A DNA stretch of 44,242 bases, taken from positions 1 through 44,242 of the IMG/VR virus record IMGVR_UViG_3300045988_084446; one strand, given 5' to 3'. Origin of the DNA: a virus. The position numbers and the translations under genes are program-made. The notes below the pieces were generated by a model that saw nothing but the letters and a program-made list of their open reading frames with translations, made no database searches and was not told where the DNA came from. The first letter of the stretch is position 1, and every line of letters starts with the position of its first letter. Positions 23,887 through 32,080 of the stretch are shown in pieces.

Positions 23887-24240
23887 ATGCTCAAAGTCTC
23901 ACAGTGGTTCGGGCGCGCAGGAAAATATCTGCGCGACATGACAAAAAGTCACGCTGCCATGCGTTACATCGTATGGTATGCTGCAATGATCGTGATCTGC
24001 GTCATGATCTATGTGACAGCGTGGCTCTATGATTGGAACACAAAAATGCATCCTGATCTCGTGGAGATGCGAAATTTCCTCCACGAGATCAGCGGGGCGG
24101 CGTGGATTGCGGTCATCGGATTCCTCGCAAAGTCATTCATCGACCGCGACGAGAATGGAATCCCCGACCAGTACGAAGAGAAAAAGGAGGACAAAGACAA
24201 TGGAAAGAGTACATCTGAAAGATCTGAATCTGACGTATGA
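23887..24240 (+). CDS. Holin (two TM segments)
   Basis: 117 aa with TM1 YIVWYAAMIVICVMIYVTAWLY and TM2 AAWIAVIGFLAKSF plus a charged C-terminus. RBS GGAGGGAGGTG. Immediately upstream of, and overlapping, the endolysin gene. Confidence 0.6.
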   Translation: MLKVSQWFGRAGKYLRDMTKSHAAMRYIVWYAAMIVICVMIYVTAWLYDWNTKMHPDLVEMRNFLHEISGAAWIAVIGFLAKSFIDRDENGIPDQYEEKKEDKDNGKSTSERSESDV

Positions 24241-24694
24241 TGCGGGGCGACTGAGCACGCGCCGCGAAACGGATATGATCGTCCTGCATCACACAGGCAA
24301 CCCGACCGATGATGATCTCTCTGCGGAGGAGATTAATGCATCGCATCAGGCGCAGGGGTGGACGTGCATCGGGTACCACTATGTCGTCCGCAAGGACGGA
24401 ACCATAGAGGTCGGGCGGCCGCATTGGACCATCGGCGCGCATGCGTCGGGGGAAAACTACCACACGATCGGCATCCACGTCTGCGGCAATTTTGAGATCG
24501 GATATCCGACGGCCGCGCAGATTGAGAGTACAGCGATGCTGTTGGCTAACGTTTGCACGGATTACGGACTGCCGATTGACCGCGATCACATCGTCGGGCA
24601 CAGAGCGCTGATGGGGACGGCATGCCCCGGCAGGAATCTCTTTGCGCAGATGGATGAGATCGTCGGCAAAGCGAATTTCTACGCCAATCAATGA
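24200..24694 (+). CDS. Endolysin, N-acetylmuramoyl-L-alanine amidase (Amidase_2/PGRP fold)
   Basis: Translation MIVLHHTGNP...GYHYVVRKDGTIEVGRPHWTIGAHA...NYHTIGIHVCGNFE...IVGHRALMGTACPG carries the Zn-binding H/H/C signature. RBS AAGGAGG 9 nt upstream of the ATG at 24200. Out of frame with the listed ORF 24029. Confidence 0.75.
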   Translation: MERVHLKDLNLTYDAGRLSTRRETDMIVLHHTGNPTDDDLSAEEINASHQAQGWTCIGYHYVVRKDGTIEVGRPHWTIGAHASGENYHTIGIHVCGNFEIGYPTAAQIESTAMLLANVCTDYGLPIDRDHIVGHRALMGTACPGRNLFAQMDEIVGKANFYANQ

Positions 24695-24707: not shown

Positions 24708-25328
24708 ATGTTTGAACGGGTGAAAGATATCATTACAAAGCACAAAACCGTTCTTCTGGTGATCCTGTGTCTGTTGATTATAGGCGTTGCATACGCCGTT
24801 GGCCGACACTCTGCATCCGAGCAGACGGCGGCGGAAAAGCCCGCAGTCCTGACGCAGGAGCAAACGCAGGACGCGGCAGCACTGCGGGCGCAGCTCGATA
24901 TCTCACGCGCCAACGCACAGGCACTCCAAAAGCGTCTTGCAGATGTGCAGGCGGGACAACGTACGCCGGCGGCTACATATTATGTATCAGCTCCAACGGT
25001 CGAGCGTGCTGCGCAGGTGGTAGAGCGGCAAATACGAGAGGACGATCCTACACTGCCACGGGCGGCGCGTGAAAAGAGTGATCGCACCGTGGTTACTCCG
25101 ATCACAAAGGATAAGGACGGCAAAGACCTATCGCCGGCAGATCAGAAGGTTGACGTCTACAAGATCAACCTGCGCAAAGATCACCGCATCAAGGCAGGTG
25201 CATCTGTCATTGACGGCAAGGTACTGATGACCGTCGGCTACGAGCAAGGACGATTTGAGGCACTGGCACACTTTGACGGGGCGCGCTATAAGGGCGCGAC
25301 CGTCATGTATAACGTCGCCGAGTGGTGA
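24708..25328 (+). CDS. Lysis accessory protein, i-spanin-like (N-terminal TM plus periplasmic coiled-coil)
   Basis: Start ATG 24708 with GAGGAGGTG 6 nt upstream. TM segment LLVILCLLIIGVAYAV followed by AALRAQLDISRANAQALQKRLADVQAG. Directly after the endolysin. Confidence 0.45.
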   Translation: MFERVKDIITKHKTVLLVILCLLIIGVAYAVGRHSASEQTAAEKPAVLTQEQTQDAAALRAQLDISRANAQALQKRLADVQAGQRTPAATYYVSAPTVERAAQVVERQIREDDPTLPRAAREKSDRTVVTPITKDKDGKDLSPADQKVDVYKINLRKDHRIKAGASVIDGKVLMTVGYEQGRFEALAHFDGARYKGATVMYNVAEW

Positions 25329-25344
25329 ATAGTTGAATCGACTG

Positions 25345-25372
25345 GGGGGGAGATGTTTTGCGGCGTCTCCCT
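25345..25372 (+). promoter_or_regulatory. Hairpin after the lysis cassette, a possible weak terminator
   Basis: GGGGGAGA ... TCTCCC stem, followed by TTAGTTGGTTT. Confidence 0.3.
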
Positions 25373-25397
25373 TAGTTGGTTTAAGGAGGTATGGAGC

Positions 25398-26009
25398 ATG
25401 CTTGAGAGTGAACTATGCAATTACGCAGAAAAACTTGCCAATTTTATTCGGGGAAAAAACTTTGCGCCAGTTGCCAAAAGGAAGCCATACTATCACATGG
25501 GAGCAACAATAACCGACTCTATACTACAGGCAGGTTTAAATTACCATCATGTAGTCTATCCGCGTGTTCTTAAACTCCTCACAAAATATCCGGACTACAA
25601 GACGACATGTGATTTCATTATTTTGATGCAGGTCGCGCCCCTCTCGGAACTCATCTCTTGGAAAAATCCGAAAAAGCTACAACGCGTTAAAGATTTAACA
25701 TGGTTTCTATATAACAATGGCATCAAAAATGAAGATCAGCTTGCAAAATGGCTTGATATAGAAGAAAACATAAGTCAGCTAAGAAAGCTTGATGGCATTG
25801 GACCTAAGACCATTGATTACCTAAAAATGCTTTCTGGCAGTCAGGCGATTGCTATAGATCGTCACCTATTTGCATTCTTGGAGTTGGCAGGGATACCTCA
25901 TTGCTCATACCAAGAGGCTAGCCTTATATATGGCAAGACAGCAGAGTTATTGAATACGAGTCAATATGAGCTGGACAAGCAAGTATGGCTGTATATGGCT
26001 AAAACTTAA
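25398..26009 (+). CDS. Low-GC moron: HhH-GPD-like (endonuclease III/DNA-glycosylase-like helix-hairpin-helix) protein
   Basis: AGGAGGT 7 nt upstream of the ATG. LRKLDGIGPKTIDYLKMLSGSQAIAIDRHLFAF resembles the HhH motif of EndoIII (LPGVGRKTANVVL...AVDTHIFRV). Composition is markedly AT-rich relative to its flanks. Has its own terminator. Confidence 0.45.
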   Translation: MLESELCNYAEKLANFIRGKNFAPVAKRKPYYHMGATITDSILQAGLNYHHVVYPRVLKLLTKYPDYKTTCDFIILMQVAPLSELISWKNPKKLQRVKDLTWFLYNNGIKNEDQLAKWLDIEENISQLRKLDGIGPKTIDYLKMLSGSQAIAIDRHLFAFLELAGIPHCSYQEASLIYGKTAELLNTSQYELDKQVWLYMAKT

Positions 26010-26025
26010 AATTTGATGTTTGTGC

Positions 26026-26062
26026 ATAAGCCCCGGGGCTTCGGCTCTGGGGCTTATTTTTT
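26026..26062 (+). terminator. Rho-independent terminator
   Basis: ATAAGCCCC - 14-nt loop - GGGGCTTAT, then TTTTTT. Confidence 0.8.
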
Positions 26063-26063
26063 G

Positions 26064-26092
26064 TTGACAATATTGGGTTAATTGTCTATACT
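26064..26092 (+). promoter_or_regulatory. Sigma70-type promoter P1 (TTGACA - 17 nt - TATACT) with an embedded 6-9-6 palindrome GACAAT...ATTGTC
   Basis: TTGACA at 26064-26069, 17-nt spacer, TATACT at 26087-26092. The palindrome lies within the spacer and is operator-like. Confidence 0.6.
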
Positions 26093-26098
26093 ATAACT

Positions 26099-26186
26099 GT
26101 CTCACCCGCTTGGGTGTGTGGATTGAAAATTGTGATTGGATAGAATAGAAAAAGCAGAGACCTTTTATAAGGTTTCTGCTTTTTTC
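26099..26186 (+). ncRNA. Candidate phage small RNA of about 85-90 nt, from P1 to an intrinsic terminator
   Basis: No ORF or RBS. 5' hairpin CACCC-GCTT-GGGTG at 26103-26116. 3' terminator GCAGAGACC - 8 nt - GGTTTCTGC at 26154-26179, followed by TTTTTTC. Confidence 0.4.
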
Positions 26187-26227
26187 TTTGCCTAGAAATT
26201 TTTTTTGAAAAAATATAAAATAAACTA

Positions 26228-26256
26228 TTGACATAGTACTATTGCAATGGTACAAT
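26228..26256 (+). promoter_or_regulatory. Sigma70-type promoter P2 (TTGACA - 17 nt - TACAAT) upstream of the acidic protein gene
   Basis: Perfect -35 at 26228-26233 and TACAAT at 26251-26256. The spacer contains two 8-bp palindromes, TAGTACTA and ATTGCAAT. Confidence 0.6.
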
Positions 26257-26312
26257 GTAATCAAGATAAAGGTCAGGGGGCAAAAGCCCCAGAGAAAGAG
26301 GAGGATTTAAAA

Positions 26313-26633
26313 ATGATCAAGTTGACGAATGAAGTAAAATATACCGCGGAATACACTCCGATCGCCATCGCAGAAGATGGAAAGCGCTTTGTATTTCTCT
26401 GCGATGCGTTTTGGGATTGTGACTTCTACCGAGCACGGGCGTTCTGCCCCGATGATACGCCGGACGAAGACGGAGACCGTCCGACCTATGACATCTGCTT
26501 TGAGATTATCAACACAGAGTGCACCGATGAGGCAAACGCCTGCGACTGGGAATCTGTATATGATTACGAGGAGAACGGCGATTACATCGACGAGGATGCA
26601 GCGACCGTGTTGACGGAGCTTGCCTGCGAATAG
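26313..26633 (+). CDS. Highly acidic, Cys-containing small protein (106 aa). Candidate DNA-mimic or anti-defence protein
   Basis: RBS AGAGGAGG 8 nt upstream of the ATG. About 30% Asp+Glu (DDTPDEDGD, YDYEENGDYIDEDAA) and seven Cys. Own promoter and terminator. Confidence 0.5.
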   Translation: MIKLTNEVKYTAEYTPIAIAEDGKRFVFLCDAFWDCDFYRARAFCPDDTPDEDGDRPTYDICFEIINTECTDEANACDWESVYDYEENGDYIDEDAATVLTELACE

Positions 26634-26654
26634 TGATTGTCTTTTGAATCCCCA

Positions 26655-26681
26655 CCCTCACCGTATTCCGGTGAGGGTTTT
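26655..26681 (+). terminator. Rho-independent terminator
   Basis: CCCTCACCG - TATTC - CGGTGAGGG, then TTTT. Confidence 0.7.
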
Positions 26682-26707
26682 ACATTTCGCGGAATCCACA
26701 CTATAAT
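26679..26707 (+). promoter_or_regulatory. Promoter (TTTACA - 17 nt - TATAAT) for the RHH gene
   Basis: -35 at 26679-26684 and TATAAT at 26702-26707. AGGAGG at 26717-26722 precedes a TTG start at 26730. Confidence 0.5.
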
Positions 26708-26729
26708 GAAGACAATAGGAGGTGTTATT

Positions 26730-26909
26730 TTGGGCTGGGTAGAAAATAAGATTAAGCGTACCCGGGAGTATAACCGGGAAAACTACGAACAGCTGAAGAT
26801 GCAAGTGCCGAAAGGCACGAAAGCCATCATCAAGGCAGCTGCCGAGAAAGAAGGTAAGTCCATGACAGCCTATATCATGGAGGCGGTCAACGAAAAAATG
26901 AACAAGTAA
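26730..26909 (+). CDS. Ribbon-helix-helix (CopG/Arc/ParD-like) DNA-binding protein, orphan
   Basis: NYEQLKMQVPKGTKAIIKAAAEKEGKSMTAYIMEAVNEKMNK shows the typical RHH beta-strand plus two helices. TTG start 7 nt after AGGAGG; the alternative ATG at 26706 lacks an RBS. Confidence 0.5.
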   Translation: MGWVENKIKRTREYNRENYEQLKMQVPKGTKAIIKAAAEKEGKSMTAYIMEAVNEKMNK

Positions 26910-26912
26910 AAT

Positions 26913-26951
26913 AAAAAAAGCGAAGCTGTACGGAATAGGCTTCGCTTTTTT
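26913..26951. terminator. Bidirectional rho-independent terminator between the RHH gene and the convergent serine recombinase gene
   Basis: AAAAAAGCGAAGC - loop - GCTTCGCTTTTTT. Confidence 0.8.
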
Positions 26952-26961
26952 GTTTAATAGA

Positions 26962-28065
26962 TTAAGCCTCAATCGGTACTGCTATCAGTTTATTTCTGAA
27001 TATGATAACTCGATCAAGGAGCCTCTCCCAAAATAATTTTCTTTCTGCTTTCTCCATATCGGCATAGCCGGTGTCTGCGGTATCAATGCTCGCCAATAAT
27101 GCCGCCTCTATGCGATCCTCTCGCCAATACACGTTGTATGGGCAGTTACTGTGCGTGTATGATCGACACACATAATAAATGCGCACACATGTCTTTTGAC
27201 GATGGTATCTCGGCGTGAGTCCACGCCCGCATTTAGGGCATTTTAATAGACGACTGAAAAGATAGATGTTATCTGTTCGCGGGTGTTGAGTACGTCCCTC
27301 GAATGCTTTTTGTACGGTTGCGAACAAGTCATCATCGATCAAGGCTGGACAGAAATTTTTGACGCCGTAATATTCGCCGATATAAATTTTGTTTTGTAGA
27401 GCGCGACCAACGGCTCCTTCTGTTTTGCCGTAGTGATATTTTCCCAACAGCATCCGATACGTTGCAAGCACAGAATGACCTTCCGCAAAATACGCAAACA
27501 TATCTTGTACCATTGGCGCCTTTTTCCTGTCGATTACAATATGCTTGTTCTTGCTGATTTTGTATCCATCAGGTATGTGGCCAGTGATAACCTTTCCTGA
27601 ACGTAAAAGTCCCTGCTGCACATATTTGACGCGGTCACTTGTCTGATCGCTCTCGTGCTGTGCAAGTGTCAGTTTGAGGTTGAGCATCAACCTTCCGCTG
27701 CTAGTTGTTGTATTGTACAGAGATTCCTGTGAGCACTCCCAGTCTACGCTATGCGCATCAAGGATATCCTGCACAATATAATAGTCCCGAACGTTTCGGA
27801 ACCATCGATCAAGGCACTTAAATATGATGACATCAACGTCTCCTGTTTGTACATCCTCTAAGAGCCGTTGCAGACCTTTGCGAAGGTGAGGGGATTTGCG
27901 GGCGCTGACACCCTCATCGGCGTAAACCCCCACTATTTTGTAAGCGTGTTGTTTGGCGTATTGGTATAAATCATGCTCCTGCTCGGCGAGGGAGTATCCA
28001 TGCCGAGCCTGCTCCTCTGTTGACACGCGAATATAAAGCGCCGCGCGCTTCTTCGATCGGTTCAT
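26962..28065 (-). CDS. Serine recombinase (resolvase/invertase catalytic domain plus recombinase and zinc-ribbon domains; small serine-integrase type)
   Basis: N-terminus MNRSKKRAALYIRVSTEEQ carries the catalytic Ser motif. C-terminal Cys cluster CPKCGRG...C...C. RBS AAGGAG. Confidence 0.8.
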   Translation of the reverse strand: MNRSKKRAALYIRVSTEEQARHGYSLAEQEHDLYQYAKQHAYKIVGVYADEGVSARKSPHLRKGLQRLLEDVQTGDVDVIIFKCLDRWFRNVRDYYIVQDILDAHSVDWECSQESLYNTTTSSGRLMLNLKLTLAQHESDQTSDRVKYVQQGLLRSGKVITGHIPDGYKISKNKHIVIDRKKAPMVQDMFAYFAEGHSVLATYRMLLGKYHYGKTEGAVGRALQNKIYIGEYYGVKNFCPALIDDDLFATVQKAFEGRTQHPRTDNIYLFSRLLKCPKCGRGLTPRYHRQKTCVRIYYVCRSYTHSNCPYNVYWREDRIEAALLASIDTADTGYADMEKAERKLFWERLLDRVIIFRNKLIAVPIEA

Positions 28066-28078
28066 CTAAAGATTCTCC

Positions 28079-28344
28079 TTGTCTACAAATTGCCTACAAA
28101 ATACCATGATTCGCCTTTCTTACTCTTATTTTTTGTTTCGTACAAGAATATGTTTTATTCTTGTGAATCCCTGTCATTGTAAGGGATGTAGTAATGTGAT
28201 ATAATCTTTTATCCTGTGCTATTATATATCGGTGATCTTATATCACAAAATACACAGCACTGCCACATAGCTTTTTATATCAATGGTTTAGCGCCTATTC
28301 AGAGTGACTTGTCTACATCTTGTCTACATAATCACTTGCCTACA
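28079..28344. repeat. Candidate attP region: five direct TTGYCTACA arm-type repeats bracketing an AT-rich segment with inverted repeats
   Basis: TTGTCTACA at 28079, TTGCCTACA at 28090, TTGTCTACA at 28309 and 28320, TTGCCTACA at 28336, all in the same orientation with about 11-bp phasing. 10-bp IR TGTGATATAA / TTATATCACA at 28196 and 28239. Abuts the 3' end of the integrase gene. Confidence 0.45.
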
Positions 28345-29498
28345 ATCCTTTCAAAAATCTGCGCGGTCTCTTGCTTCATTTCCTCCGTATCATGCGTATA
28401 CAGATTGAGTGTAATCGTTGCATCAGCATGTCCCAGACGTGCTGCAACGTCAACAGGCTTTGCCCCTGCCTCAATGAGGCGGGTGGCGTGCGTATGCCGG
28501 AAGCTGTGTGCATTCAGATTCAGACGCTGCAGAAACGCCTCAAAACGTGCATGACTGTAAGGAGTGCCGTTGGACCGAATACAAAGGAGAGGGCGTCGAA
28601 CAAGAAATTTCGGAGGTGGTATTTTCTTCGGCAGAATAACGAGTGCGCGACCATCATGCATATCCTCGTAGATTACTTGATATGCCTCTCCTAAGCGCAT
28701 CTCCTCTTTTGCTTGTGATGCTTTTAGTGCACGCAGATAGGAGATAAGCACGGCATCCGCGTAGAATGTTCGCGTACTGGTCGTGGTCTTCGGCGTTTCG
28801 AAGTACCCGCGATATACCCGCTGTCTTGCAACCGATATTTCTCCTGTGTTAAGGTCAATATCATCCCATGTGAGCCCCAAAACCTCACTGATTCTAAGCC
28901 CCGTGTGATAGAGCAGTTTGACTGCGGGATAGTATACCCCGTCTGTTGGGATGGCTGCAAATTGCTCGGGCGTGATGACCACGCGGGGGATGATCTTTTG
29001 AGGAGCACAACGGGGGATAGATATGCCTGTGACAGGGTTCGCAGAGATCAATTCTGCCGGATATACGGCATATTTCATAGCAATAGATAACACCGTTTTT
29101 GCCTGTGCTATTGTGGTTCGCGCAAGACCTTCTTTTGCAATTTTTTTCATCCATGAATCTACATCTCGCGGGCGTAGTTCCTGAACATGGATACTGCCGA
29201 GATACGGGACGATGCGTGCAGCGATTATGCTTGAATAATTCTTATGCGTTGATCGCTTCAAAGTTGGCCGCACGACGTTCTCAAGCCACGAGGCAAGGTA
29301 GTCCCGCAGCGTCACTTTCTCCGACGTGACACCGATATTCCCGCTCTTCCAGTCGGCATAGGCTTTTACGCCTTCGTCAAATGCTTCATCCTCGGTGGCA
29401 AAGCCTCCTTTCTCTTTCATGCGGCGTGGGTTCTTCGAGATGTCGAAGCTGTACGAAAAAGTTTTCCCACGCTTTCTGATTCTGATTTTGTTGGACAT
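28332..29498 (-). CDS. int: Tyrosine site-specific integrase
   Basis: 388 aa. N-terminal SAM-like/arm-binding region and a C-terminal catalytic domain with R...HTHATR...LGH...Y (…YTHDTEEMK). RBS AAGGAGG. Confidence 0.85.
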   Translation of the reverse strand: MSNKIRIRKRGKTFSYSFDISKNPRRMKEKGGFATEDEAFDEGVKAYADWKSGNIGVTSEKVTLRDYLASWLENVVRPTLKRSTHKNYSSIIAARIVPYLGSIHVQELRPRDVDSWMKKIAKEGLARTTIAQAKTVLSIAMKYAVYPAELISANPVTGISIPRCAPQKIIPRVVITPEQFAAIPTDGVYYPAVKLLYHTGLRISEVLGLTWDDIDLNTGEISVARQRVYRGYFETPKTTTSTRTFYADAVLISYLRALKASQAKEEMRLGEAYQVIYEDMHDGRALVILPKKIPPPKFLVRRPLLCIRSNGTPYSHARFEAFLQRLNLNAHSFRHTHATRLIEAGAKPVDVAARLGHADATITLNLYTHDTEEMKQETAQIFERIVGK

Positions 29499-29759: not shown

Positions 29760-30035
29760 CTAACATCCGCAAGTGGGGCTAAAGGTTCCGTCGCAGCATT
29801 TTGTCCGTCCGTTTTCGCATCCACAGACACCTTTATGGTGACTGCAACAGCCTCTCCTTAAGTATATCATACGGTGATTGTATGTGCCGACAATGGAGCC
29901 GATCTCCGGCGGGGGAACCTCAACATTGAGTGTAAAATTTGCAATAGATCCTTCTTCTGCCTGTGGCGTTGCTGCAGATACCGTGGGGGATAGCAACATC
30001 GCAAGTATTGCTGTGAGTAAAGTGATGCGTTTCAT
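29760..30035 (-). CDS. Secreted cysteine-rich peptide precursor (signal peptide plus 8-Cys C-terminal module)
   Basis: MKRITLLTAILAMLLSPTVSA|ATP... ends GCCSHHKGVCGCENGRTKCCDGTFSPTCGC. Translationally coupled to the upstream rhodanese gene by an ATGA overlap. Confidence 0.55.
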   Translation of the reverse strand: MKRITLLTAILAMLLSPTVSAATPQAEEGSIANFTLNVEVPPPEIGSIVGTYNHRMIYLRRGCCSHHKGVCGCENGRTKCCDGTFSPTCGC

Positions 30036-30472
30036 TGATCTTTCTCTCCCTTCATATCTACCATCGGCAGCCGGCCTTTTTCAATATGCTTTGCAGCGTC
30101 TTTTAATACCTTGACGTTTATAAAGCCGTTTTGAAATAGAATCTGTGCTGCACGAATAGAATAACCATCATCGGGGCATGAACAATAAATCATGTAAGCC
30201 TTTGACTTATCTTGCTGGGCAATAAAATCATCAAGGGGTTTCTTTTTGTAGGGGTTAATCCATATTTCCCCGGGAACCTCTTTTTTGCTCCTCTCCCTAC
30301 TTTGTTCTGATCGGACATCGATTACCTGTACGGCTTCTGGAGCTTTTAAGTATTCCTTTATCGTTATGAACGAATACTCGACTTGCTCCTTTTGTTGTGA
30401 CTGCTCTGCTGATATAACGCTGGCGTTCAGCAAAACGAGCAACAACATGATGGGGATGCGTAATAGTTTCAT
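30032..30472 (-). CDS. Secreted rhodanese-domain (sulfurtransferase-like) protein
   Basis: Signal peptide MKLLRIPIMLLLVLLNASVISA. VIDVRSEQ...GEIWINP...IYCSCPDDGYSIRAAQILFQNGF.NVKVL matches the rhodanese fold with a Cys in the active-site loop. RBS GGGAGG. Confidence 0.6.
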   Translation of the reverse strand: MKLLRIPIMLLLVLLNASVISAEQSQQKEQVEYSFITIKEYLKAPEAVQVIDVRSEQSRERSKKEVPGEIWINPYKKKPLDDFIAQQDKSKAYMIYCSCPDDGYSIRAAQILFQNGFINVKVLKDAAKHIEKGRLPMVDMKGEKDQ

Positions 30473-32027: not shown

Positions 32028-32072
32028 GTTACTTTTGAAGAATAAAATATCTTGACAGGTTACTTTCTTAGA
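32028..32072. promoter_or_regulatory. Operator-like repeats GTTACTTT(C)TTAGA overlapping PR. A third copy lies at 32325-32338, after cro
   Basis: GTTACTTTTGAAG at 32028, GTTACTTTCTTAGA at 32059-32072, GTTACTTTCTAAGA at 32325-32338. Confidence 0.4.
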
Positions 32073-32080
32073 GTTATACT
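32052..32080 (+). promoter_or_regulatory. Early rightward promoter PR (TTGACA - 17 nt - TATACT)
   Basis: Near-consensus boxes at 32052-32057 and 32075-32080, about 45 nt upstream of the cro-like start. Confidence 0.6.

Follow-up and report, generated by a model that had tools for sequence, protein, structure and literature searches.

The stretch of viral DNA under consideration, the 44,242-nt IMG/VR record IMGVR_UViG_3300045988_084446 (hereafter the window), harbors between its lysis genes and its recombinase genes a short intergenic RNA gene, preceded by a promoter that we call P1, and a second promoter, P2, which stands in front of a cassette of small genes. A first-pass annotation had described P1 and P2 as back-to-back, near-consensus sigma70 promoters separated by an intrinsic terminator, and had proposed that P1 yields a short non-coding RNA; when the sequence is read directly, every one of these features is found where it had been placed and both promoters are indeed near consensus (Table 1). 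What escaped that annotation is the identity of the RNA, whose first 31 nucleotides (nt) resemble a repeat of a type I-C CRISPR (short palindromic repeats that are clustered and regularly interspaced) array and whose following stretch recurs in an RNA gene of the bacterial genus Selenomonas.

Table 1. Features of the region. Positions are those of the window unless preceded by an L number, which designates a retrieved contig or locus; aa, amino acids; ORF, open reading frame; RBS, ribosome-binding site; UTR, untranslated region; RHH, ribbon-helix-helix.
Feature	Position	Strand	Remarks
Amidase	24200-24694		
phrog_10797 gene	24708-25328		
Low-GC ORF, 218 aa	25353-26009		no family
Upstream intrinsic terminator	26026-26063	+	ends lysis/moron transcription unit
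P1 promoter, TTGACA-17-TATACT	26064-26092	+	11/12 sigma-70 match
Pseudo-repeat, 31 nt, GTCTCACCCGCTTGGGTGTGTGGATTGAAAA	26099-26129	+	from alignment with real I-C repeats and covariation
Predicted 11-nt 5' handle, UGGAUUGAAAA	26119-26129	+	
Pseudo-spacer, guide-like	26130-26154	+	conserved part 26130-26146 (17 nt), TTGTGATTGGATAGAAT
Rho-independent terminator of the P1 RNA	26155-26192	+	from fold and conservation in relatives
P2 promoter, TTGACA-17-TACAAT, TG extension	26228-26256	+	11/12
5'-UTR hairpin, GGGGC-AAAA-GCCCC	26277-26290	+	between P2 start and RBS; read from aligned sequences
Acidic 106-aa protein	26313-26633	+	first gene after P2; no family
Terminator (26654-26678), then P3 promoter, TTTACA-17-TATAAT (26679-26707)	26654-26707	+	P3 11/12
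59-aa RHH protein (Arc/TacA1-like)	26730-26909	+	3' end of cassette in most relatives
Serine recombinase	26962-28065	-	
Tyrosine integrase	28332-29498	-	
Host module: crRNA-like RNA gene, TTC-flanked target, divergent promoter, 67-aa ORF	L051:620-1340	+	also L074-L076
Spacer versus phage family	L073:8914-8948 versus L024:9185-9218		34/34
Spacer versus phage family	L072:80-114 versus L062/L005		31/34
Spacer versus phage family	L051:1493-1527 versus L065:2367-2397		28/31

By its sequence, the P1 RNA gene is a discrete transcription unit with a strong promoter and a terminator of its own. Upstream it is bounded by a terminator that in the relatives of this phage, about a dozen distinct related contigs gathered from IMG/VR and metagenome scans, lies directly 3' of the phrog_10797 lysis-module gene; only 6 nt separate the end of P1 from the pseudo-repeat, the start of which coincides with the predicted transcript start at ~26099. 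The RNA of ~90 nt has no coding capacity that we could recognize, there being no ORF of at least 30 aa and no GGAGG on the plus strand from P1 to the terminator, and the whole 94-nt RNA folds with -32.5 kcal/mol (z = -5.0). As to the terminator that had been placed at 26154-26186, folding of the 3' end recovers it as a ~16-bp stem followed by a U-run, although a consensus terminator scan makes no call there; it is preceded by an A-tract, with which it could be usable in both directions. The GACAAT-N9-ATTGTC palindrome noticed in the P1 spacer is likewise present (26066-26086), but the operator role attributed to it is not credible, because L024 has the palindrome in broken form only and the alternative P1 promoters of L004, L008, L011, L013 and L078 lack it. 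Sites matching the sigma-70 consensus at 11 or more of 12 positions number five in the whole 44-kb window, where first-order Markov simulations lead one to expect 0.35, and three of them, namely P1, P2 and a promoter P3 that the first-pass annotation did not mention, lie on the same strand within 650 bp, while three such same-strand sites within 700 bp arose in none of 300 simulations. The remaining two are a TTGACA-17-TATACT site at 32052-32080 (+) in the lysogeny/early region, probably an early promoter, and an antisense site at 15953-15925 (-) inside the gene for a 2995-aa tail protein. Searching the region against Rfam at gathering and permissive thresholds returned only sub-threshold, terminator-driven matches and no family, and blastn of positions 25300-27000 against GenBank phages returned no match.

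The identity of the RNA emerges from its first 31 nt, which align with bona fide type I-C repeats from Selenomonas arrays, from an array on contig L058 and with GTCTCACCCTTCGCGGGTGAGTGGATTGAAAT, a type I-C repeat catalogued in the supplement of PMC10651486, the pattern TC...G.G.GGATTGAA being invariant throughout the alignment. L058, a metagenome match, consists of a long CRISPR array whose repeat, GTCGCCCTCCGTGCGAGGGCGTGGATTGAAAC, aligns base for base with the start of the P1 RNA; the L058 spacer that matched our scan pattern probably did so by coincidence, yet it led to the identity of the repeat. Within the pseudo-repeat, positions 26101-26107 pair with 26112-26118 (7 pairs), a stem that comprises the CACCC/GGGTG hairpin pointed out previously (26103-26107 and 26112-26116), and the check for covariation in related phages that had been suggested for it does reveal compensatory changes: the hairpin is paired in 97.4% of the cells across the alignment, 5 of its 7 pairs have changed on both sides, its covariation score was reached by 0 of 500 shuffles, and controls slid along the alignment are 34-65% paired. 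Among the phage relatives the stem occurs as CACCC/GGGTG, CTCACCC/GGGTGAG and CTCGCC/GGCGAG. Because of this alignment and this covarying hairpin, we regard positions 26099-26129, at the level of sequence, as a solitary type I-C repeat in sense orientation. It is the single repeat-like site of the 44-kb window, where a search for a second repeat found none, and it is intergenic, with no ORF running across it. In type I-C systems the product of Cas5 (described in the Cas5d literature) keeps an 11-nt 5' handle, and the last 11 nt of the pseudo-repeat are predicted to be its counterpart.

The conservation does not stop at the end of the repeat. The RNA gene occupies a constant place in every relative recovered, and all of them conserve GGATTGAA-NN-TTGTG-N-TTGGA, so that the 17 nt past the repeat stay the same while hairpins, promoters and terminators change. 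The gene itself exists in two forms: the short one is that of the window, and the long one is extended at its 5' end by ~37 nt and has another P1 promoter. In the latter (L004:2750-2790, L008, L011 and L013) the extra nucleotides make two hairpins. The first of these, together with the GATTGG/GGTTGAGTAC that follows it, resembles a further I-C repeat, degenerate and only 7-9 nt ahead of the main one, and the P1 promoter spacer of the short form aligns with part of that degenerate repeat. Among the phages no target of this guide-like stretch was found: the window contains no self-target or site complementary to the P1 RNA, no protospacer for the pseudo-spacer was found in the window or in the fetched phage loci, and a scan of IMG/VR for the pseudo-spacer flanked by TTC, the protospacer-adjacent motif (PAM), gave 29 unrelated, chance-like sites with no repeat nearby. 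Two further readings of the RNA were tried and dropped, one as a small ORF (a 9-aa frame in the window versus a 26-aa frame in L004, with no RBS) and the other as a titrator of CsrA through two GGA motifs 18 nt apart, these motifs being the I-C handle and the pseudo-spacer.

A target was instead encountered in a bacterial host. The metagenome contig L051 derives from a Selenomonas sp., its ABC permease being 87% identical to that of S. infelix, and carries a five-repeat I-C array. Some 600 nt from the array lies an RNA gene, composed of GTCGTATCAGTATAACTGATGCGTGGATTGAAGC, TTGTGTTTGGATATAAT and a terminator, which has its own TTGACA-17-TAAAAT promoter and a different hairpin (ATCAGT/ACTGAT) and the same handle, followed by the pseudo-spacer TTGTGTTTGGATATAAT. 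About 130 bp away is a site, TTC|TTGTGTTTGGAaATAAT, which matches that pseudo-spacer at 16 of 17 positions and is flanked by TTC, the canonical I-C PAM; the site lies 8-27 nt downstream of a divergent promoter, TTGACA-17-TATTTT, which is followed by a 67-aa ORF equipped with an RBS and then by the array leader. By our own estimate, the chance expectation of this arrangement is ~1e-7. The similarity between host and phage genes is limited to the handle and the pseudo-spacer (92% over 38 nt), the hairpins and terminators being different. Most phage pseudo-spacers match the L051 target at positions 1-11 and 13-17, whereas that of the window has mismatches at 6, 12 and 14; over the PAM-proximal stretch, the sharing of which (at least 9 nt) serves to recognize viral RNAs of the kind discussed below, the relatives agree at 11 of 11 positions and the window at 10 of 11, differing at position 6, the sole position with three alleles. 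In type I Cascade, the CRISPR-associated (Cas) surveillance complex, positions 6, 12 and 18 are those whose bases are flipped out; the mismatches recall a 6-nt periodicity, which is not clean and is only suggestive because further variants differ at 3, 7, 11 and 16 (L080, L077 and L078). Modeled from a single sequence, the 67-aa protein is one long helix, at low reliability (predicted template modeling score 0.33). In L073, a 92%-related strain, the array is present and the module of RNA gene and ORF is absent.

Downstream of the RNA gene the organization is that of a promoter with interchangeable cargo. P2 is nearly invariant across the phage family, and the RNA gene stands upstream of it in 12 of the 12 IMG/VR contigs that have P2. 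Both of the 8-bp palindromes that had been seen in the P2 spacer, TAGTACTA (26234-26241) and ATTGCAAT (26241-26248), are present and belong to one imperfect 22-bp palindrome (26234-26255; 9 of 11 symmetric pairs), which is unique in the window, covers the spacer and the -10 box, is conserved in the relatives, with perfect symmetry in L053 and L077, and is by its sequence and placement a candidate repressor operator. Between P2 and the first gene, ~22 nt before the start codon, the transcript has a hairpin whose stem is kept in all relatives while its loop varies (GCAA, GAAA, AAA); anti-CRISPR-associated (Aca) proteins have been reported to bind 5'-UTR hairpins of anti-CRISPR (acr) mRNAs. The first slot after P2 is occupied by at least four unrelated small-gene families among the relatives, namely an acidic one with the motif AFCPDDxPDEDG (94-106 aa), an 88-90-aa one, a 208-aa Cys-rich one and a 109-aa acidic one, and in some relatives an extra gene of 190-197 aa follows. 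Since this slot holds different small genes in the relatives, the acidic 106-aa protein is a candidate anti-CRISPR protein (Acr) by inference. The RHH protein, for which only generic Arc/TacA1-like matches were found, is by analogy a candidate Aca-type regulator, and the succession of variable small genes, a conserved DNA-binding gene and an inverted repeat in the promoter is the layout that characterizes acr-aca loci. As no protein of the cassette matches a known Acr or Aca, both assignments are made from context.

Other neighbors of the cassette deserve mention in their own right. The 218-aa ORF that lies between the last lysis gene and the upstream terminator has ~40% GC as compared with 50-58% in the adjoining lysis genes; it is absent from most relatives (in L005 and L062 the lysis gene is followed by the terminator), present in L003 and L060, and its sole match is a faint one to an endonuclease III-like helix-hairpin-helix (E = 0.059). 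Close to the integrase, a 146-aa ORF (30032-30472, -) encodes a rhodanese-like domain (E = 1.3e-5), an unusual cargo for a temperate phage.

Several observations connect the phage family to Selenomonas and to its type I-C arrays. A prophage with an identical tyrosine integrase resides in Selenomonas noxia, beside trpD and a bile-acid symporter gene, and 3 of the 11 spacers from three Selenomonas I-C arrays match members of the phage family (Table 1). The PAMs flanking the three matched protospacers are TTT, TTG and CTC, none of them the canonical TTC; these are functional alternative PAMs in I-C, and they could reflect either PAM escape or tolerated alternatives. Apart from these matches, relatives of the phage were found integrated inside Selenomonas type I-C CRISPR arrays (L011:11861-13261; L061:~936-976; L004:3708-3750; L013; L054; L077:13118-13160; L079:1895-1935; L080/L083:3024-3065). 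Next to a 450-aa serine recombinase there are two types of phage attachment site (attP), and for both the crossover falls inside the repeat, at GGGGCG|CGTGG in type A and at CCATAC|GGGG in type B; spacers and repeats come after the hybrid junctions. The recombinase of the window has 367 aa, with ~85 C-terminal residues missing, and no attP of either type, and because of these losses it is probably a relic. Integration of a phage into CRISPR repeats is known for type II-A (PhiAP1.1; bioRxiv 10.1101/2020.10.09.333658); in our literature search we found no report of phage integration into I-C repeats or by a serine recombinase.

The interpretation that we favor, and to which we assign a reasonably good though by no means overwhelming probability, is that the P1 RNA is an RNA anti-CRISPR of the Cracr kind, combining a I-C repeat with a guide shared with a host regulatory RNA and heading an anti-CRISPR-like cassette. 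Cracrs are viral RNAs that resemble CRISPR RNAs (crRNAs) and in which one pseudo-repeat and a pseudo-spacer are followed by a rho-independent terminator; they copy the spacer of the host RNAs CreR or CreA, whereupon the Cas proteins repress the cas or creT promoters, and the published examples comprise CracrVA1, CracrIF1/2 and, among 219 candidates in all, listed I-C candidates (Liu et al., bioRxiv 10.1101/2024.10.29.618823). The type I-C repeat is processed by Cas5 (PMC10651486), and host Cas5c would be expected to cleave the P1 RNA where the repeat hairpin ends on its 3' side, so that the 11-nt handle UGGAUUGAAAA remains. Cascade might then assemble on the P1 RNA, which would compete with immune crRNAs, and the first ~17 nt of the pseudo-spacer would guide the complex to the TTC-flanked site at the host promoter, where the target would be bound and repressed rather than cleaved because complementarity is only partial. 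That the phage RNA would mimic a host regulator is suggested by the L051 RNA, which has the same pseudo-spacer and adjoins such a target. Downstream, P2 with its palindromic operator would drive the interchangeable small genes, and the RHH gene at the end of the cassette may repress P2.

A number of observations weigh against this view. On the host side, the target is seen in one Selenomonas lineage only (L051, L074-L076), and none was seen in S. noxia, the host to which the integrase of the window is linked; an exact-pattern scan of 185,579 species-representative genomes for the handle plus the pseudo-spacer gave no further host copy, its 23 matches being chance-like and in unrelated taxa, none of them Selenomonas. 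L051 is a 3.9-kb contig with no cas genes on it, and L073 has none within 10 kb of its array, while the 67-aa ORF belongs to no family and has only near-identical homologs. On the phage side, the window mismatch at position 14 does not fall on a flipped base, nor do those variants of the relatives that differ at 3, 7, 11 and 16; the cargo proteins have no match to a known Acr in Pfam, PHROGs, NCBIfam, PDB sequences or source names, and the structure model of the acidic 106-aa protein (predicted local distance difference test score, 58) is too poor for use.

Among the other explanations, the closest competitor is that of a pure decoy of the Racr type, in which Cas5c and Cas7c would be sequestered by the repeat-like RNA in aberrant complexes, the conserved stretch having no part in guiding. 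In its favor, the phage element answers to the description of solitary repeat units and Racrs, being a lone I-C repeat with a promoter no more than 250 bp away and candidate acr genes beside it; RacrIC1 provides a precedent, and the window pseudo-spacer matches the only known target imperfectly. However, a decoy accounts neither for the conservation of the 17 nt after the repeat, which persists despite changing hairpins, promoters and terminators, nor for the recurrence of the pseudo-spacer in a host RNA close to a matching, PAM-flanked site, which a decoy does not need, and we consider it rather unlikely as the whole explanation; a decoy effect may nevertheless run alongside the guide effect, since the two can coexist. 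We rank it directly behind the Cracr-type reading. Far less probable is a phage mini-CRISPR, whereby the RNA would arm host Cascade against competing phages in a form of superinfection exclusion. Virus-borne mini-arrays and single-repeat units are known (PMC6858448, PMC11656645), and the strong, constitutive-looking promoter in a lysogeny-side region would suit such a role, but there is one repeat only, the conserved guide extends over ~17 nt rather than over a full 34-35-nt spacer, and the searches described above yielded no protospacer in the window or the fetched phage loci and only chance-like PAM-flanked sites in IMG/VR.

Equally improbable, in our judgment, is that the locus encodes a generic regulatory RNA, be it a base-pairing or antisense small RNA, a put-like antiterminator or an attenuated leader of the acidic gene, i.e., the roles that the first-pass annotation had put forward. 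The RNA is structured, looks strongly expressed and lies directly upstream of P2 and the acidic gene; yet it belongs to no Rfam family and has no complementary site in the window, a near-consensus promoter of its own serves the downstream gene, which differs among relatives while the RNA persists, and what is conserved in the RNA corresponds precisely to a I-C repeat, which these readings leave unexplained together with the guide-like stretch. Of the roles proposed there, that of a titrating regulator came nearest to the evidence, without recognition that what is mimicked is a CRISPR repeat. We give just as little credence to a non-functional relic, that is, a repeat acquired when a phage excised aberrantly out of a CRISPR array. 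Integrated relatives of the phage do occur in Selenomonas I-C arrays and aberrant excision of such a phage can take array pieces along, but the element is set ~800 bp into the phage and apart from the att junction, is furnished with a dedicated near-consensus promoter and a terminator, keeps its hairpin pairing by compensatory changes and accompanies P2 in all 12 contigs that have it.

Going beyond the Cracr-type reading, a broader and more tentative proposal, which we hold to be possible while deeming it on balance somewhat doubtful, is that L051 carries a hitherto undescribed I-C safeguard similar to CreTA, with a crRNA-like antitoxin set against a 67-aa helical toxin beside an orphan array, and that the P1 RNA is its mimic. 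The phage could then disable Cascade by new AcrIC proteins, made from P2 under the control of an RHH Aca, and yet leave the toxin untriggered; phages of this family would additionally insert into I-C repeats by means of their serine recombinase. By analogy, the L051 module beside its orphan-looking array is a possible I-C toxin-antitoxin pair of the CreTA type.

If these readings hold true, the region would be a natural and complete anti-CRISPR locus directed at the type I-C systems of an oral commensal genus, joining an RNA mimic, interchangeable candidate inhibitor proteins and a candidate RHH regulator with a host circuit that the RNA would hijack, and the host module would extend the toxin systems that guard CRISPR to subtype I-C. 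Type I-C is in use for large-deletion genome editing, and new AcrIC proteins and compact I-C guide scaffolds would hence be useful tools; moreover, the conserved RNA gene together with P2 offers a landmark for finding new anti-defense genes in phages of Negativicutes. The Selenomonas setting, the candidate CreTA-like I-C module of the host and the rich cargo slot are what make the case worthwhile for experiments.

Placed alongside known systems, the locus shares features with several of them. Racrs, which inhibit CRISPR-Cas, are phage-borne RNAs that mimic a solitary repeat, RacrIC1 being found next to acrIC5 (Camara-Wilpert et al. 2023, PMC10651486), and the P1 RNA is likewise a solitary I-C repeat mimic of a prophage, intergenic, with a promoter nearby and beside small candidate anti-CRISPR genes; the sequence strings of the phage family are not among the rows of the SRUFinder table that the comparison covered. 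It differs from RacrIC1, which lies downstream of acrIC5 in the same transcript, in being bounded, ahead of the protein cassette, by a promoter and a terminator of its own and in carrying a conserved guide-like stretch. Aca14 is an RHH Aca that binds an inverted repeat over the -10 box (bioRxiv 10.64898/2026.07.27.740549), and the cassette resembles its acr-aca locus in layout, with a conserved RHH gene behind small genes that vary and with an inverted repeat overlapping the -10 region; the likeness to Aca14 is one of description, the RHH gene of the window has its own promoter, P3, behind a terminator, and its cargo lacks a match to any known Acr. CreA and CreR are host crRNA-like RNAs that act in CreTA and in Cas autoregulation (bioRxiv 10.1101/2023.03.10.532045, PMC10120712), and the L051 RNA is akin to them in having a degenerate repeat, a partially matching guide and a PAM-flanked target at a promoter, whereas the phage copy is not part of a CRISPR-cas locus, and the phage genome itself offers it no target.

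The likeness to Cracrs goes furthest. The own promoter, single pseudo-repeat, short pseudo-spacer and terminator reproduce the layout of CracrVA1 and of host CreR, the pseudo-spacer recurs in a crRNA-like RNA of the host, the PAM-flanked target of which lies at a promoter, and the element lies beside candidate acr genes of a temperate phage, outside a CRISPR-cas locus. In contrast to the known cases, the system here is type I-C in Selenomonas phages, the host counterpart is beside an apparently orphan array instead of within a cas operon, and the host RNA faces a 67-aa protein ORF rather than a known CreT RNA or a cas promoter. The P1 RNA element has the structural attributes of both Racrs and Cracrs, and by analogy with them, in a match made on architecture and on the shared pseudo-spacer, we regard it as a further case of this recently described kind of RNA anti-CRISPR.

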